Positions 1-5,415 of a stretch of DNA of 64,000 bases are shown piece by piece; position 1 is the stretch's first letter; every line of letters begins with the position of its first letter. Source of the stretch: Candidatus Sulfotelmatobacter sp. (lineage in GTDB: Bacteria > Acidobacteriota > Terriglobia > Terriglobales > Acidobacteriaceae); the NCBI GenBank assembly GCA_050012155.1, contig JBEKHS010000005.1, forward strand, positions 21,117-85,116. Direction: 5' to 3'. Both the position numbers and the translations under genes were made by a program. Below the pieces are notes generated by a model, which was not told the DNA's origin, searched no databases, and worked only from the letters and a program-made list of their open reading frames with translations.

Positions 1-342
1 GTTCATCGGAGATGCTCACGAGCAGCCGATAATCACATAAAATCGTTTGCCCAGAAAACCGCTGAGTATGTTTGCAAGCGTTTCGACATAAGCGATATTT
101 CGAAAATACTCGCGCGGTTCGGAGATGACTACAAGCAGCAGTTCCACGGACAGGCAATGAGCGGGACCGCCCATGTCTCGTGGGACAACATCTATACCAA
201 TAGACAAGCGGTCGCCCATAAAGCTGGAGCGCAAATGAGCTTCGGGGACCTGAAAAATGACTACCTGAACAGTTTGTTGATACTGGACGCTCTAGTCTCA
301 GCCCTGACGCTGAGTCCGACTGAGATCAGCGATCTCACGTAG
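1..342 (+). CDS. C-terminal fragment of a HEPN-like protein (5' end lies outside the window)
   Basis: Frame 1 is open from nt 1 to the TAG at 340-342. The translation contains an R-x4-H motif (NRQAVAHK) near the C-terminus, as in HEPN RNase domains. The track ORF 157..342 is the tail of this frame. Confidence 0.4.
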   Translation, partial: VHRRCSRAADNHIKSFAQKTAEYVCKRFDISDISKILARFGDDYKQQFHGQAMSGTAHVSWDNIYTNRQAVAHKAGAQMSFGDLKNDYLNSLLILDALVSALTLSPTEISDLT

Positions 343-416
343 GAGTGATTTCAAGTAATCATGGTGCCGGGCGGGTGGCTCGGGTTTACTTACCGGGATG
401 CGGCAGCCGCCGGGCG

Positions 417-710
417 TCAGCGGACACCATCACTTTGGGCTTCCATGTAAGACCGCAGGATGGCGTTGATGCGGGTCTGGTAGCCTTTGCCGTGCTTTTT
501 GAGCCATTGCACGACATCGTGGTCCACACGGATGGTGAGGCGGTCTTTGGGCTCGGGCAGCGTGAGCTTGGCGGTGGCCCAGAACGACTTGCTGAGCTTG
601 GGGATATCGGAGAAGTCGATTTCGGAGTCCCGCATGGCGCGCAACCGTTTGAAGTCTGTCGCGCCTTTGGAGCGAGCTCGTGAGCTGGTTTGCGTAGTCT
701 TGCCTTTCAT
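417..710 (-). CDS. brnA: BrnA-family antitoxin (CopG/RHH-like)
   Basis: 97 aa. The motifs DFSDIPKL...LTIRVDHDVVQWLKKHGKGYQTRINAILRSYMEA are typical of BrnA. AAGGAGG lies 7 nt upstream of the ATG. The ORF overlaps the 3' part of the brnT frame. Confidence 0.8.
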   Translation of the reverse strand: MKGKTTQTSSRARSKGATDFKRLRAMRDSEIDFSDIPKLSKSFWATAKLTLPEPKDRLTIRVDHDVVQWLKKHGKGYQTRINAILRSYMEAQSDGVR

Positions 711-942
711 CGCGATGTGCCCTCCTTGCGGAAATAATTCGACGGCGTTTGCCGCGGATTGCGTAGACCACTACGACCTCAATCTCTTCGATTAAGCCGA
801 TGGCCAATACGCGGTCTTCTCCGCGACTGTGGCTCGCCTTCTCGAACACCGGGCCGTCAAAAATCCGCATCGCGTCCTGGAAGTCGATGTGGTGCTTTGC
901 GAGGTTGGACTGGCGATTGCTCTCGTCCCACTCGAAAAGCAT
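430..942 (-). CDS. brnT: BrnT-family toxin (DUF497) with an unusually long C-terminal extension
   Basis: Internal Met at 942 gives MLFEWDESNRQSNLAKHHIDFQDAMRIFDGPVFE...VVVVYAIRGKRRRIISARRAHRDERQDY, which is the BrnT/DUF497 pattern. The frame then has no stop until 430. The true 3' end is uncertain. Confidence 0.65.
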   Translation of the reverse strand: MLFEWDESNRQSNLAKHHIDFQDAMRIFDGPVFEKASHSRGEDRVLAIGLIEEIEVVVVYAIRGKRRRIISARRAHRDERQDYANQLTSSLQRRDRLQTVARHAGLRNRLLRYPQAQQVVLGHRQAHAARAQRPPHHPCGPRCRAMAQKARQRLPDPHQRHPAVLHGSPK

Positions 943-1203
943 GTTTACGGCCTCGACACACCATGGGATAAAGTATAAGAGTATCAGGATATGCACAAGA
1001 TGTACATACGCGATTAGGGGAGCTTTACGCGGCGCTGAAGCGCCGCTCTTCCACTGGGCTACCGGGGTTGGGGCGCTGCCAGCGAAAAGCAGATTCCTCA
1101 CCCAGCTTGGCGCCCGGCCTGGAATGACGAAGAGTTGAGTGCGGCGCGCGGTTCGGATGACAAGGCTATCGATTCAACCGTGTGGGCGACGTGCAACCAG
1201 AAA

Positions 1204-1914
1204 TCAGATGATGTCGACCTTTCCCCAGGGGACATACATATAGCCGTAGAAGTCGTATGTCGCCTGGAGATCGTTCGGGTTCTGGTCGCTGATCGGCCCC
1301 TGGTTTACGGTCCAGTTGCTGGAGGCCGGGTCGGCGATGGGATTGCCGGCAAAATCGAAGTTGGTGACCTGGTCGGGGCCATCTTTCTGCGACCAGGAAT
1401 GAAAGTTCGCGTTGTCGTCGCAGCGGACCCAGTGGTAATCGCCGGGCCAGCCAGCGGCGGTGTCGGGTGAAGATATGAGAAGGGCGACATAATGCCCGCC
1501 GTCCGCGGACGCCGCACGCTTCTGAATATCGGAGATCGTACTGCCGACGAAGATCAGACCGTCTTTTTCCGCGCCCGCCTGCACGCCGGCGCCTGTCGTA
1601 GGCTGGGGAATCAGATATCCATGGCGCCTTCCTGGCTGGGCGAACGAGTTGGTGGCTATGTCGCACGAATAGTTGTAGCAGTTATTATTTGGCTGGAACT
1701 TCGAGGACATGAAATAGCCGTTGCAATCCCGCGCCGGGTCATAGCACACCAAAGCGGTGGCCACGGTTGCCGCGTACTGAGGGACGTTGCCGACGCCCGG
1801 AATACTGACATAGCTCGGCGCGAGGACGTCTGCGGCCGCGGCCTGAACGCGATGCGCAAGGTCATCGGGTGCGATCCTGCCGCTAAGCTTGAACCGGCGA
1901 ACTGGTGGGTGCAT
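1204..1914 (-). CDS. Hypothetical Cys/Trp/Asn-rich protein, possibly with a papain-like fold
   Basis: 236-aa ORF with no convincing competitor. Residue order NNNCYNYSC ... GGHYVALLI ... DYHWVRCDDNANFHSWSQKDG loosely mirrors the Cys...His...Asn-Ser-Trp order of C1 peptidases. No obvious signal peptide. Confidence 0.55.
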   Translation of the reverse strand: MHPPVRRFKLSGRIAPDDLAHRVQAAAADVLAPSYVSIPGVGNVPQYAATVATALVCYDPARDCNGYFMSSKFQPNNNCYNYSCDIATNSFAQPGRRHGYLIPQPTTGAGVQAGAEKDGLIFVGSTISDIQKRAASADGGHYVALLISSPDTAAGWPGDYHWVRCDDNANFHSWSQKDGPDQVTNFDFAGNPIADPASSNWTVNQGPISDQNPNDLQATYDFYGYMYVPWGKVDII

Positions 1915-2143
1915 TCACGACCTCTTCCTGAACCAAGACGAAACTGCCATCTTTCGACTTCAAAGACAGCCGACTCAGCGTTTTTTGCAAAACCCATAAA
2001 TCACACATAAGTCTGGTTTGGGTACATACAGGCTGAGGGAATGAGCGTAGAGTTAAAGTGTCTCTTCTAGCATCGTCCCGCTAACTCCGTGGCTGACGGT
2101 CCCTTGCAAAAATCAGACGTTTTTCGCCGAGCGAGGAGCCTTC

Positions 2144-2917
2144 ATGCCCAAAAGCCCTGCCAATCGTCCTCCGCCTGTCCGCGCTTCCGTTGTGCATGAC
2201 GGCGATGGAAAAGAAATAGGCAACCTTATTCTCCGCAGTCTTCCCTCAAGCGAAGGTACGCAAGTTTTATCCTCCGCGGAATTTGTGCGCCTCAACCTTC
2301 ATCAGGTGCTCCATGAGGCTGGAGAGACGATCAAGTCGGTGTATTTCCTGAACGAAGGCTTGGGCTCGGTGCTGACGGTTCAGCCCGACGGCAAGAGCGT
2401 GGAAGTAGGTTTGATCGGCAAGGAGGGGTTTGTCGGCCTGCCCATTATCTTTGGATTTTCAACCAGCGGACTTCGAGTGGTCACGCAGGCGGATGGAACT
2501 GCATACCGAATCGAAGCGCAGACTCTGCGAAAATTCCTACCCGAGTGTCCGGAACTGGAACGGCAGCTTCAGCGCTTCTCATTGTTCCTGGGGATGCAAT
2601 CGACGCAGCTCGCGGCCTGCAATCGCCTTCATAAGGTGGAGGAGCGATTGGCACGCTGGCTGTTGATGAGCCAGGACCGGATTGGCGGCAAAACGCTCCC
2701 CTTAACCCAGGAGTTTCTGGGGCAAATGCTCGGAACGCGGCGGGCAAGCGTCAGCGCCGCTGCAGGAGCGTTGCAGAAAGCCGACATGATCACGTACACA
2801 CGAGGCAACGTGACGATCGTCGATCGACGAAAGCTTGAGCAGACCGCCTGCGATTGCTATTCCATCATCCAACTGCAGAAAAAAAAGTGGAACGCGGAAA
2901 TCGATAGCTCGGGCTGA
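2144..2917 (+). CDS. Crp/Fnr-family transcriptional regulator
   Basis: cNMP-binding-like N-terminal domain (VYFLNEGLGSVLTVQPDGKSVEVGLIGKEGFVG). C-terminal HTH (RLARWLL...LTQEFLGQMLGTRRASVSAAAGALQKADMITY). Confidence 0.85.
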   Translation: MPKSPANRPPPVRASVVHDGDGKEIGNLILRSLPSSEGTQVLSSAEFVRLNLHQVLHEAGETIKSVYFLNEGLGSVLTVQPDGKSVEVGLIGKEGFVGLPIIFGFSTSGLRVVTQADGTAYRIEAQTLRKFLPECPELERQLQRFSLFLGMQSTQLAACNRLHKVEERLARWLLMSQDRIGGKTLPLTQEFLGQMLGTRRASVSAAAGALQKADMITYTRGNVTIVDRRKLEQTACDCYSIIQLQKKKWNAEIDSSG

Positions 2918-2928
2918 TCCGAACAGCA

Positions 2929-4233
2929 TCAACTGTTGGCGACTCCCCGGTAGCGGCCGACCAGCCCGGCGCGCCGTGCGGGCAATTGTTTTTCGGCGTT
3001 GTCGCTGATCGAACGGACGTTGCTGTTCTGCTCCGACCGGAAGCGCAACAAGGCTGCAATATTCCCGACTTTGTCGAACTCGGCGTCATCCTTCACGTAG
3101 AACAGTTCGATGTCGTGACGGATTACTCCGGGCAGGATGGCTTCCGCCACATCCACCACAGCGCGAGTCTGCCTGCCGCAAACCGGACAGAAGCTCACCA
3201 GATGGGCGTCAAGATGGCCGCAGCCGGAGCACTCGACTGCCTGCGCCGCATAGTTGAAACCGAGCAGAAGAGTTTGCACCTGGCCTAACTGCAACGCGTG
3301 GAGGACGCGCCGCAATCCGGTGACGCCGCGGCCATTGCCGCGGGCCTGCTCGAGTGCCTCGCGGACCAATTCCGCGCGGCGCTTATCCTGCGAAGCCGCG
3401 AAAATGCGCTCCGCCTCTGAACGGATTACTTTCCTGGGCACATGAGCCAGGTCGGCGCAAAAGCGCCCGAGCAACTTCTGCGAGACATAAGGATGCAGTT
3501 GCGGTTCGAACTGCGGCCACAGAGTCTCCTGGCAGCCCAGGATCCAGTTCTCGAATATCCCTTTGTCTTTATCGTTACCCAGCGCGTCTTTAAGGAACTC
3601 GGCGACAAACTTGAAATGCTGGCGGGCTTCGTCGGCCACGCGGCGCTGGGCATGGCCTCCGTCGTAGCCCGCGAAACCGTCGCTACGGCCACGGCGGGAG
3701 AGCGGATGGAAAAATCCTTCGCGCTCGGTCAGTTCGCCCAAACGCAGTTCGAACAGGCGCGCGCGATGGCGATCGACGAGCACGATGCCGAGGCTGGGGA
3801 ATGCTCCCAGCAGGTGCGCCAGAGGCTTCAGACGAAAATGACGATCAACCCGAAGCTCCGTGCCCTTCAGTTGGTCGGGCAGATCGTACTCCCGCCAGAA
3901 AGCTCGAGCCGAGCAGGCGAATACCGCTTTGGCTCGCGCGCCATTGCCTCGCGCGCCATTGCCTCGCCAATCCTGCGACAGACGCACGATGCGGTCAAGA
4001 TCGGCACGTGCCGATTCGCATTTGTCTTTTTTGGAGTTACTGCGTTCTTTAGGGTGACTGCTGCTTCTGCTTTCCAACTGGCGCAAAGCTTCGCGCGCCA
4101 AATCTTTGGCGAGGATTGCGTCTTCCTTGTGGGCTTTGTTGCGGGGCGCTGCGGGCTGAAAATAAAAACTAAGCGCACAGGCTTGTGGATCTTCAAATTG
4201 GGCCAATTCACGGACTTGTTCACGAGTAATCAT
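2929..4233 (-). CDS. Bacterial archaeo-eukaryotic release factor-like protein (baeRF / eRF1-Pelota-like) with a Zn-ribbon insert
   Basis: 434 aa. Central LGIVLVDRHRARLFELRLGELTE and a YDGGHAQRR loop. The C-terminal domain (GRGVTGLRRVLHALQLGQVQTLLL ... CSGCGHLDAHLVSFCPVCG ... IELFYV) resembles aRF1/Pelota domain 3 with a zinc ribbon. Confidence 0.7.
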   Translation of the reverse strand: MITREQVRELAQFEDPQACALSFYFQPAAPRNKAHKEDAILAKDLAREALRQLESRSSSHPKERSNSKKDKCESARADLDRIVRLSQDWRGNGARGNGARAKAVFACSARAFWREYDLPDQLKGTELRVDRHFRLKPLAHLLGAFPSLGIVLVDRHRARLFELRLGELTEREGFFHPLSRRGRSDGFAGYDGGHAQRRVADEARQHFKFVAEFLKDALGNDKDKGIFENWILGCQETLWPQFEPQLHPYVSQKLLGRFCADLAHVPRKVIRSEAERIFAASQDKRRAELVREALEQARGNGRGVTGLRRVLHALQLGQVQTLLLGFNYAAQAVECSGCGHLDAHLVSFCPVCGRQTRAVVDVAEAILPGVIRHDIELFYVKDDAEFDKVGNIAALLRFRSEQNSNVRSISDNAEKQLPARRAGLVGRYRGVANS

Positions 4234-4268
4234 GCGGATTTCCCAGGCCTTACAAACAGAAAATGAAG

Positions 4269-5312
4269 TTACGCGGTGCCGGTGGGCGCGAAGCGTCCTT
4301 TAAATTGCATGGCCAGTCCGGGCGATTTGCGCAGGTGATTGCGGGCGGCGGAGATGGAATCGAGTACGTGCTCGGGCGAAACGCCGGTGATGGCAGCGAT
4401 CTCGCCCACGCCGAAGCCTTCAATGGCGTGGAGAATGAAGGCTTCGCGATGAGCCGGCCGAACGTCACGCAGAGCGGAAGCGATGAGGTGCATCATCTCA
4501 TCCGAACCCACGATCTCCTCAGGCGTGGCCACGCGGTCGTCGGCGATGATGGTCTCTTCTGTGATAGCTTCGTCGGGCTGATGGAATTGCAATCCGGGCT
4601 CGTCGCTGGCTTTGACATTTTGCTTGCGGGCGGATTCCTCGAGGTGCACAGCTCCACCGTCGCTGTCATCCGTGCGCGAGAGTTGATCCAGCGCGGTGAG
4701 CGCGAGGTGGTAGAGCCAGGGCTCGAGCGCGAGGCGCTCCGGTTTCTCGTGACTGTTGTCCAGCGCGGCGGCGACAGTTTCGTCGATTACTTCTTCTTTG
4801 GTGATGGACTCCGGCGCAACCAGGTCGGAAGCTTCGCGGAAAAAGATTTCGTGTTCGACAAAACGCTCCAGGCGCGCCAGATTCACGTTGACGTAGGAGC
4901 GCACGTCATCGGCTGAGACCGTTGCCGGAAACACTGCAGCTAACGTCTGCTCGAAGGGCACGGAAACATTGCGCCGCGTCGAAGCCTCATGGCGACGCCG
5001 GGTCCACTTGTGGCTGGAGCGCAGCAGGTCTTTGTGCCTGGTGAGCTGTTGCAGCAAATCTTCGAATGCTCTCTTCACCGCGGCGGCAACGGTTGCGGCT
5101 TTGGACTGCGCCGCCATCTGGCCCGAAGGCAGTCGCAGGTTGAGCGAAACGCTGGTCCCCTCGCGGGCGGAGAGTTCCTCCACCGTGCCTTTCAGATGGA
5201 TCAACTCCGGGCGAAACACCTGCAGCCGTTTTCGCAGTTTTTCAATTTGATGTTGGAGATCTTTTTCTACGGCGGGAGTTTTATGAAGACGGTAACTGAT
5301 GTGAACGTTCAT
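4269..5312 (-). CDS. HPF/RaiA (S30AE) ribosome-hibernation domain fused to an ECF sigma-like region 2/region 4 module
   Basis: Start chosen at MNVHISYRL (ATG 5312, GAGGTG upstream). The N-terminal ~100 aa fit the HPF pattern. The C-terminus carries LEPWLYHLALTALDQL (region 2-like) and REAFILHAIEGFGVGEIAAITGVSPEHVLDSISAARNHLRK (sigma-70 region 4 HTH). Only 35 nt separate it from the baeRF gene. Confidence 0.75.
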   Translation of the reverse strand: MNVHISYRLHKTPAVEKDLQHQIEKLRKRLQVFRPELIHLKGTVEELSAREGTSVSLNLRLPSGQMAAQSKAATVAAAVKRAFEDLLQQLTRHKDLLRSSHKWTRRRHEASTRRNVSVPFEQTLAAVFPATVSADDVRSYVNVNLARLERFVEHEIFFREASDLVAPESITKEEVIDETVAAALDNSHEKPERLALEPWLYHLALTALDQLSRTDDSDGGAVHLEESARKQNVKASDEPGLQFHQPDEAITEETIIADDRVATPEEIVGSDEMMHLIASALRDVRPAHREAFILHAIEGFGVGEIAAITGVSPEHVLDSISAARNHLRKSPGLAMQFKGRFAPTGTA

Positions 5313-5397
5313 GAGCACCTCGGGTATTCCAACGAAGCAACGCAACCCAGTGCTTGCTGAGAAATCACTTCCTGAGAAAATTGTACACCCGTTGCCA

Positions 5398-5415
5398 GAT
5401 TGCAAGACTGCAATC
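5398..5415. promoter_or_regulatory. Perfect inverted repeat GATTGCA-AGAC-TGCAATC, a candidate Crp/Fnr-type box
   Basis: 7-4-7 palindrome in the same 5-N4-5 core format as the FNR box (TTGAT-N4-ATCAA). It lies about 90 nt upstream of the HPF-sigma start, in a divergent intergenic region. Confidence 0.3.

Follow-up and report, generated by a model that had tools for sequence, protein, structure and literature searches.

A Probable Balon-Type Hibernation Factor Gene Paired With an HPF–Sigma Chimera in Candidatus Sulfotelmatobacter

Introduction

What does a protein with the domain order of a release factor do in a bacterium when its gene follows directly on one that joins a hibernation-promoting factor (HPF) domain to a sigma-like domain? 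The question is raised by a 434-amino-acid (aa) gene of Candidatus Sulfotelmatobacter sp. (assembly GCA_050012155.1, contig JBEKHS010000005.1, positions 21,117 to 85,116), a stretch of 64,000 nucleotides (nt) that we refer to as the window and within which positions are counted (Table 1). The original prediction, made by a model from the sequence, had described the product as a bacterial eRF1/Pelota-like (baeRF) protein within a stalled- or dormant-ribosome response module, and had presented the baeRF families as ribosome-rescue factors lacking experimental characterization. The latter no longer holds, as structures of Balon, Rv2629, and MSMEG_1130 on ribosomes appeared in 2024 (PMC10901736).

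Operons of baeRF and HPF genes, together with a non-catalytic role in the ribosomal A site, had been predicted in 2019 (PMC6514570). Balon, which lacks the NIKS and GGQ motifs, sits in the A site of idle ribosomes and even of ones engaged in translation, where EF-Tu accompanies it and RaiA is bound alongside; raiA is also the commonest gene neighbor of Balon (PMC10901736). A recent preprint adds that SigE–HPF chimeras are “frequently found adjacent to” Balon genes (bioRxiv 10.1101/2025.11.04.686544). The gene studied here most likely encodes a Balon/baeRF10 hibernation factor, and it stands next to a gene for an HPF chimera; a link of baeRF to HPF was already described in 2019 and 2024, and one of SigE–HPF chimeras to Balon genes in the 2025 preprint. 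As a single gene call, the finding is ordinary. Recognition of Balon-type factors, however, dates from as late as 2024, and little of their diversity has been mapped; the very abundant soil and peat Terriglobia, including Candidatus Sulfotelmatobacter, retain a Balon relative with an archaeal-like zinc ribbon and a Gly–aromatic remnant of GGQ, and this clade offers a comparison point for the repurposing of aeRF1 into a hibernation factor and for the origin of the EF-Tu-facing hairpin.

A Family-10 baeRF With a Release-Factor-Like Fold

The protein matches Pfam baeRF_family10 (PF18854; 68.7 bits, E = 8.5e-19, residues 135–270) far above the gathering threshold of 27.1 bits, and the same domain is present in all of its listed homologs; the profile search proposed with the original prediction thus returned this family and no unrelated fold. 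More than 4000 homologs were found, with 532 species-representative genomes encoding a relative, and the closest named relatives are Candidatus Sulfotelmatobacter and metagenome-assembled genomes of Acidobacteriaceae (Terriglobia). The ATG start is right, since the MITREQ N-terminus is kept in all close homologs. When chain sequences reconstructed from Protein Data Bank (PDB) alignments were scanned with Pfam, MSMEG_1130 of Mycolicibacterium smegmatis scored 124.7 bits for baeRF_family10, while Rv2629 fell in family 2; since MSMEG_1130 has been solved in the A site of the ribosome, the Pfam family of the window protein includes a ribosome-solved factor. The model for aRF1/eRF1 (TIGR03676), in contrast, reaches only 28.1 of the 234.7 bits of its cutoff.

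Structure prediction points the same way. A template-free AlphaFold2 (AF2) model, built on an alignment of 147 relatives that spans three clades down to 22% identity and was assembled with profile searches, has a predicted local distance difference test score (pLDDT) of 87.9 and a predicted template-modeling score of 0.82; an alignment of 60 close homologs alone had given an unusable pLDDT of 46, which the broader alignment remedied. In Foldseek searches against the PDB the top match was MSMEG_1130 (8v9l_z; E = 4.7e-21), with a target-normalized template-modeling (TM) score of 0.83, followed by Rv2629 and the Balon of Psychrobacter urativorans (TM 0.67–0.69; PDB 8RD8, 8RDV, 8RDW), aRF1/eRF1 (0.45–0.49), and Pelota (at most 0.45). 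The profile of the 147 relatives, searched against the same database, recovered MSMEG_1130 over its full length (E = 3.7e-33), aRF1 4af1 (E = 2e-23), Rv2629 (E = 2.8e-21), Pelota (E = 1.9e-10), and, as a weaker sequence relation, P. urativorans Balon (E = 5.4e-10). Family membership is established by these results and, with it, the modeled three-domain aeRF1/Pelota fold; the domain order that had been read from the 434-aa frame is borne out by both Pfam and Foldseek.

Each domain carries recognizable conservation. Within the N-terminal domain the P30-R-N-K-A-H-K36 loop is invariant in the clade, the middle domain lies within the region to which aRF1 3agk aligns (residues 118–324), and the C-terminal domain closes with G-N-I-A-A-L-L-R-F-R, in which R397 never varies and A394 and L396 hardly do among the 147 sequences. 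The ...ALLRFR motif of the C-domain is common to Pelota/Dom34, which belongs to the same superfamily and acts in the A site without catalysis, although the Pelota N-domain has a different fold and enters the empty mRNA channel (PMC10901736). The C-terminal tail ends in a conserved V-G-R-Y-R-G-x-A motif, is predicted to be disordered (pLDDT <50), and is limited to the closest clade (at least 67% identity); it is absent from the clade at 42–58% identity, though the HPF–sigma partner is retained there. A tandem repeat in the N-terminal domain encodes RGNGA units in frame, one to several of them among homologs (pLDDT ~62), as a surface loop that grows and shrinks from genome to genome.

The GGQ and NIKS Positions

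In release factors of this fold, GGQ serves hydrolysis and NIKS codon reading, and it is at these two positions that the window protein departs from aRF1/eRF1 (PDB 4AF1, 3AGK), with which it otherwise shares domain order, a domain-3 zinc ribbon, and an aligned, conserved post-loop helix. The profile of 147 relatives aligns a family-wide G-G-W to the GGQ of aRF1 and eRF1. At this position all 39 acidobacterial sequences have D-G-F (D185-G186-F187 in the window protein) and most distant members G-G-W, and directly behind it stands a clade-invariant G189-Y190-x-x-G193-H194-x-x-R197. The loop is modeled with a pLDDT of 60–75, and no Gln is conserved anywhere in it among the 147 relatives. A register placing A188-G189-Y190 on GGQ, obtained in single-sequence and shallow-profile PDB searches, was dropped in favor of the D-G-F register of the deeper profile; neither retains the catalytic Gln.

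Opposite the NIKS of aRF1 lies a hypervariable loop that differs in length and sequence among close homologs, and neither the profile alignment nor the close homologs contain a NIKS motif or an equivalent conserved codon-reading element. Loss of the catalytic motif is thus established for this protein. With D-G-F in place of GGQ and a hypervariable loop in place of NIKS, it is therefore most likely non-hydrolytic, and neither a rescue nor a release factor.

MSMEG_1130 (PDB 8V9J, 8V9L), the best structural and profile match and a member of the same Pfam family, likewise lacks GGQ and NIKS and is encoded in a stress operon (PMC10901736). The likeness has limits, as the two proteins share only ~18% identity, MSMEG_1130 has neither Gly-Gly nor an aromatic residue at the GGQ position, and its genomic partner is not an HPF–sigma fusion.

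A Conserved Zinc Ribbon

The C-terminal domain contains the CxxC...CxxC zinc ribbon that the original prediction had noticed (C335xxC338...C349xxC352), and its four Cys show little or no variation in the 147 relatives, down to 22% identity (distant-set counts of 108/108, 103/108, 108/108, and 106/108, respectively). Short beta-strands at 332–335 and 355–359 make up the ribbon region in the AF2 model. In the profile alignment the four Cys are missing from MSMEG_1130 and Cys are kept in aRF1 4af1. The ribbon occupies the site at which Balon has its EF-Tu-binding beta-hairpin, and the two-strand insert found there in other baeRFs may itself be a degenerate zinc ribbon (PMC6514570).

Pairing With an HPF–Sigma Gene

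The gene upstream of the baeRF gene encodes an HPF–sigma-like fusion. Its N-terminal part passes the cutoff for the S30AE/HPF domain (PF02482; 31.5 vs. 23.7 bits) but misses the stricter HPF equivalog TIGR00741 (24.3 vs. 40.9). The sigma-like part passes Sigma70_r4_2 (26.2, cutoff 25.7) and PhyR_sigma-like (29.8, cutoff 27), reaches 37.8 of the 42.9 bits set for TIGR02937 while covering model positions 26–163, and gave no sigma2 match in the Pfam scan. As far as such scores go, it resembles PhyR-type sigma mimics equally well and may be a PhyR-like mimic. As in the SigE–HPF chimeras of the preprint (bioRxiv 10.1101/2025.11.04.686544), a domain like that of SigE and other extracytoplasmic function (ECF) sigma factors replaces the HPF dimerization domain.

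The 35-nt gap stated in the original prediction is exact. A terminator scan of this spacer found none on the minus strand, with scores at background level, and because nothing terminator-like lies between the two genes on their coding strand they are likely to be co-transcribed as a two-gene operon.

Conservation of the pair was followed across 80 loci, the best 80 of the 532 species-representative genomes with a relative and hence the close clade only. A homolog of the fusion (72–85% identity) lies directly upstream and on the same strand in all 80, with a spacer of 30–54 nt in ~90% of them and a conserved AAAGGA(A/G) Shine–Dalgarno (SD) element. Pairing in the close clade could be due to descent alone, and more distant relatives were therefore sampled one by one, for a total of 12 loci (four from the clade at 42–58% identity and eight distant). 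The fusion is again directly upstream in 4/4 loci of the 42–58% clade, which includes Candidatus Angelobacter and others. The census proposed with the original prediction thus bears out the HPF linkage in these two clades, where the pairing is strict, and fails to extend it to the eight distant loci considered below.

In one Angelobacter-like genome (L083:2866-3973) the HPF and sigma-like parts form two overlapping open reading frames (ORFs; 181 and 203 aa), for which a frameshift, a misassembly, or a true split could account.

A Probable A-Site Hibernation Factor

Taken together, we consider it probable that the baeRF protein is a hibernation factor of Balon type, which enters the A site without need of mRNA and does not hydrolyze peptidyl-tRNA, and that it is made with an HPF-domain protein, both acting on the same ribosome. 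The mechanism is drawn by analogy to Balon and RaiA on Psychrobacter ribosomes and to MSMEG_1130 on mycobacterial ribosomes; from these solved relatives we infer that the protein binds the ribosome, does so at the same time as the HPF domain, and uses EF-Tu, as well as the condition that induces it. In this model the aeRF1 fold would have lost stop-codon reading and peptidyl-tRNA hydrolysis. A conserved sigma-70-type promoter would drive the two-gene operon, HPF–sigma first and baeRF second. In starved or stressed cells the HPF domain would settle on the part of the 30S subunit that holds the decoding site and the mRNA channel, and the baeRF protein would enter the A site whether or not mRNA is present, with its N-domain touching the decoding center and its C-domain, here with an intact zinc ribbon, facing EF-Tu. 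Jointly, the two would keep ribosomes inert and protected.

The parallel with Balon extends from the shared three-domain aeRF1-like fold to gene context: the Balon gene typically stands beside raiA/hpf, its product binding the ribosome with RaiA and EF-Tu, and the window gene stands beside an HPF-domain gene. The partner differs, however, being plain RaiA for Balon and an HPF–sigma chimera here.

Several observations weigh against this assignment. Unlike the solved Balons, the protein keeps one Gly at the GGQ position and retains the Cys4 ribbon. The HP motif, lasso loop, and bL27 trap of Balon could not be located in it by sequence; its conserved loops are P30..H35 and residues 172–198. Among NCBIfam equivalogs it falls well short of the cutoffs of both the MSMEG_1130 family (NF052288; 39.7 vs. 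480) and the Rv2629 family (NF052289; 38.8 vs. 320), and these scores mark it as a distant relative and a member of neither; the AOC03_06830-family “ribosome hibernation factor” equivalog gives a weak, sub-threshold match. Family 10 is the one that Burroughs and Aravind picked out as perhaps having kept catalysis (PMC6514570). As for the pairing, the 80/80 figure is inflated, because synteny by descent also keeps the divergent M20 peptidase gene and the downstream asparaginase gene, both mostly conserved at the 80 loci. Moreover, no HPF-like gene occurs within 4 kb in 8/8 distant family-10 loci (24–33% identity; from Chlamydiota, Actinomycetota, an acidobacterial paralog, and others). The HPF linkage is real but clade-specific within family 10.

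Two unannotated proteins encoded upstream of distant baeRF genes, of 347 aa (L088) and 121 aa (L090), were considered as HPF–sigma candidates and proved unrelated. Two Actinomycetota baeRF10 loci (L089:2476-5131 and L093:2382-5143) have in common another, conserved setting, in which an ArsA_HSP20 ATPase gene and one for a small AF_1253-like protein lie upstream, and genes for a ROK kinase and a luciferase-like oxidoreductase downstream.

A Recurrent Link to Sigma Factors

An alternative is that the pair serves transcription in the first place. Four family-10 proteins (P0424, P0465, P0479, P0487) bear an N-terminal zf-HC2 anti-sigma domain (HxxxCxxC), and at both sampled loci of this kind (L091:3315-5398 and L097:2872-4871; 2/2) the start codon of the zf-HC2–baeRF10 gene overlaps the stop of an upstream ECF sigma gene, with ftsH as a neighbor at one locus and dnaK–dnaJ at the other. 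These sigma factors are homologous to the sigma-like part of the window fusion. That of L091 matches residues 134–329 with 35% identity (E = 3e-30) and shares an unusual QPDE...T.E acidic linker and a REAFILHAIEG motif; that of L097 is a weaker match (22% identity, E = 1e-10). Both exceed the TIGR02937 cutoff that the window fusion misses (57.6 and 58.6 bits). As the zf-HC2 fusions are far from the window's baeRF clade (ranks 80–111 of 120), the sigma link recurs in separate branches of the family. One sigma subgroup therefore appears in two arrangements, either fused to HPF with a baeRF10 gene behind it, or free-standing with an anti-sigma–baeRF10 fusion behind it. Alternative sigma-70 factors are also named among Balon operon neighbors (PMC10901736), and our full-text literature searches found no paper joining Balon or eRF1 with anti-sigma factors, nor any anti-sigma–Balon fusions.

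These arrangements suggest, though they fall short of proving, that a sigma factor is tethered by hibernation factors. It is possible, if on the whole unlikely, that an ECF-type sigma subgroup is physically tethered to hibernation factors, the hibernating ribosome being a sigma/anti-sigma switch platform that would couple occupancy of the ribosome pool to stress transcription. That the pair is chiefly transcriptional we regard as unlikely: the amount of free sigma would then be set by the state of the ribosome pool, with hibernation as the sensor and the sigma regulon as the output. At this locus the sigma would be held covalently on HPF while the baeRF protein acts on the same ribosome, and in other lineages a free-standing sigma would be held by the zf-HC2 domain fused to the baeRF protein. 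This explanation overlaps with the hibernation-factor assignment, but several features speak against it. The Pfam scan found no anti-sigma domain in the window's baeRF protein, the sigma-like part of the fusion falls below the ECF cutoff and is PhyR-mimic-like, the conserved promoter described below looks housekeeping-type rather than like that of an autoregulated ECF sigma, and the loci inspected for the anti-sigma fusions number only two.

Relatives of the chimera on plasmids point away from it as well. Full-length HPF–sigma homologs (24–30% identity), annotated merely as sigma factors, occur on proteobacterial plasmids of Burkholderia (L094), Brucella anthropi (L095), and Paracoccus yeei (L096), the Brucella fusion also passing the TIGR02937 cutoff. 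They reside in heat- and stress-resistance loci (Hsp20, ClpK-like AAA ATPase, FtsH, HdeD, YfdX, GroESL/DnaK), and no baeRF gene lies near any of the three, whereas in Terriglobia the chimera lies on the chromosome, is conserved by vertical descent, and is always accompanied by baeRF10. That one sigma subgroup is joined repeatedly, as a fusion or a neighbor, to HPF and to Balon-type proteins poses a testable question, namely whether bacteria signal the dormancy of their ribosomes to the machinery of transcription.

Rescue and Defense as Alternatives

A hibernation factor of Balon type has also to be set against the role given to the baeRF families in the original prediction, that of a release or rescue factor hydrolyzing peptidyl-tRNA on stalled ribosomes, here through a modified GGQ-type loop such as G-G-H. 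The complete aeRF1 fold with its three domains and archaeal-type zinc ribbon would suit such a role, G192-G193-H194 stands at the start of the post-loop helix much like GGQ in eRF1, and retained activity in family 10 has been suggested (Burroughs and Aravind; PMC6514570). The YDGGHAQRR segment (residues 190–198) that had been placed at the GGQ site does lie within the loop, but GGQ aligns to D185-G186-F187 and not to G192-G193-H194. Nor are all residues of the segment conserved: residue 192 is Ala in 18/20 intermediate and 5/19 close homologs, such that “GGH” is mostly “AGH” in relatives; the position of His194 is R, H, or Q among distant members; and Q196 is replaced by E in 16/19 close and 20/20 intermediate homologs. 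Substituting the GGQ glycines inactivates eRF1, and several PDB structures matched by Foldseek contain the AAQ mutant as an inactive factor. With no conserved loop Gln, no NIKS or equivalent, and non-catalytic proteins as the closest solved relatives, a release or rescue function is improbable. The dormant-ribosome half of the proposed module is hence well supported, and its rescue half is not.

A conflict or defense module, acting for example as immunity or a counter-measure against ribosome-targeting toxins or phage and of a kind suggested broadly for baeRF proteins in 2019, is very improbable, for although baeRF-1 was tied to biological conflicts in the 2019 analysis (PMC6514570) and the gene borders an island with BrnT/BrnA, HEPN, and GmrSD genes in this contig, no PADLOC family matches the baeRF protein (the fusion has only a 14.6-bit, chance-level match), these defense genes occur in no other contig of the comparison (0/80 related loci for GmrSD and HEPN), the context is one of stable housekeeping genes (M20 peptidase, asparaginase, glpX) across 80 genomes, and a search of plasmids for baeRF homologs found none.

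Expression Signals

The fusion gene most likely starts at an ATG (5312) behind GAGGTG, giving 347 aa, as gene callers report; a TTG at 5405, taken as its start in a mechanical ORF list, probably makes the frame too long. Upstream of this start lies an invariant GGGTGTACAAT block, part of twelve consecutive columns at ≥90% identity in 76 aligned upstream regions, which reads as a housekeeping-type (sigma-70-type) extended -10-like promoter element. A simple sigma-70 scan missed the block. A sigma-54 promoter (TGGCA-N7-TACA) was rejected, as the -12 GC is missing and TG + TACAAT fits better, and the 76 regions contain no convincing ECF-type autoregulatory promoter.

Between this element and the start codon, GGUGCU of the 5′ untranslated region (UTR) overlaps the SD of the fusion gene and could pair with an upstream AGCACU. 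Among 57 distinct UTRs, RNAalifold proposed six pairs, all invariant or nearly so, and the hairpin is without covariation support because its pairs never vary; an anti-SD pairing acting as a translational switch is a possible but conjectural reading. Rfam and tRNA scans over the whole window found nothing.

Table 1. Positions of the baeRF gene, its HPF–sigma partner, and associated features within the 64,000-nt window.
Feature	Position	Strand	Basis or remark
Crp/Fnr-family regulator gene	2144..2917	+	cNMP_binding and HTH_Crp_2 domains
baeRF_family10 gene, probably Balon-type, 434 aa	2929..4233	-	Stop codon 2929-2931, ATG start
Clade-specific C-terminal tail, aa 401-434	2932..3033	-	Conserved in 60 close homologs
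C-terminal domain, Pelota/eRF1 domain 3-like, ~aa 299-400	3034..3339	-	PDB alignments, AF2 model
Cys4 zinc ribbon, C335/C338/C349/C352, inserted in C-domain	3157..3243	-	Cys counts, PDB profile alignment
Middle domain, RNase-H-like, predicted to face the peptidyl-transferase center, ~aa 131-298	3340..3843	-	Pfam match 135-270
GGQ-equivalent loop, aa 172-198	3640..3720	-	D185-G186-F187 on GGQ position, nt 3673-3681
N-terminal (decoding-center) domain, ~aa 1-130	3844..4233	-	AF2 secondary structure
15-bp tandem repeat, 2.6 copies, encoding RGNGA-RGNGA	3929..3967	-	Tandem Repeats Finder; alignment columns 101-140
Hypervariable S/N/K-rich loop, ~aa 55-72, opposite aRF1 NIKS	4018..4071	-	Profile alignment with 4af1 SNIKS
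Intergenic spacer, 35 nt, with purine-rich SD-like element	4234..4268	-	Sequence reading
HPF–sigma-like fusion gene, 347 aa	4269..5312	-	TAA at 4269-4271
ECF-sigma-like sigma2+sigma4 part of fusion, ~aa 134-330	4323-4913	-	Pfam/NCBIfam matches
S30AE/HPF domain of fusion, ~aa 1-100	5013-5312	-	Pfam PF02482 Ribosomal_S30AE
Conserved 5′UTR segment, possible AGCACU (5349-5354)/GGUGCU (5314-5319) pairing	5314..5354	-	RNAalifold
Invariant GGGTGTACAAT block, read as TG + TACAAT	5380..5390	-	~65 nt upstream of HPF–sigma ATG

The Downstream Side

The convergent Crp/Fnr gene that the original prediction had set beside the module is real, with 11 nt between its end and the stop codon of the baeRF gene, but the arrangement is incidental: the gene is absent from 79/80 related loci and displaced in the remaining one. 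It belongs to a strain-specific insertion and is not a conserved partner of the module, and the hypoxia link that such a neighbor implies is therefore unsupported. The gene of MSMEG_1130, for its part, belongs to a hypoxia regulon. The inserted island separates the baeRF gene from the conserved Asparaginase_2/glpX genes, occupies window positions 1–2917, and runs past the left end of the window (L001:7709-11906); besides the Crp/Fnr gene it holds a 236-aa orphan without a family match (1204–1914), BrnT/BrnA, a HEPN_RiboL-PSP-like protein, and GmrSD.

Elsewhere the baeRF gene is followed, usually within 0.25–1 kb and on the same strand, by an Asparaginase_2 gene (isoaspartyl peptidase/asparaginase family) in 64 of the 72 loci with enough downstream sequence, and also in L083–L086; the two might share a transcription unit. 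In the contig of the window the asparaginase gene is ~4.6 kb from the baeRF gene. Within the island, the BrnT/BrnA toxin–antitoxin pair lies at window positions 417–930 on the minus strand; the JGI (Joint Genome Institute) gene call of the metagenome contig lists BrnA without a BrnT gene, BrnA occupying 417–710 and a BrnT domain scoring 74 bits in the ORF at 430–1101.

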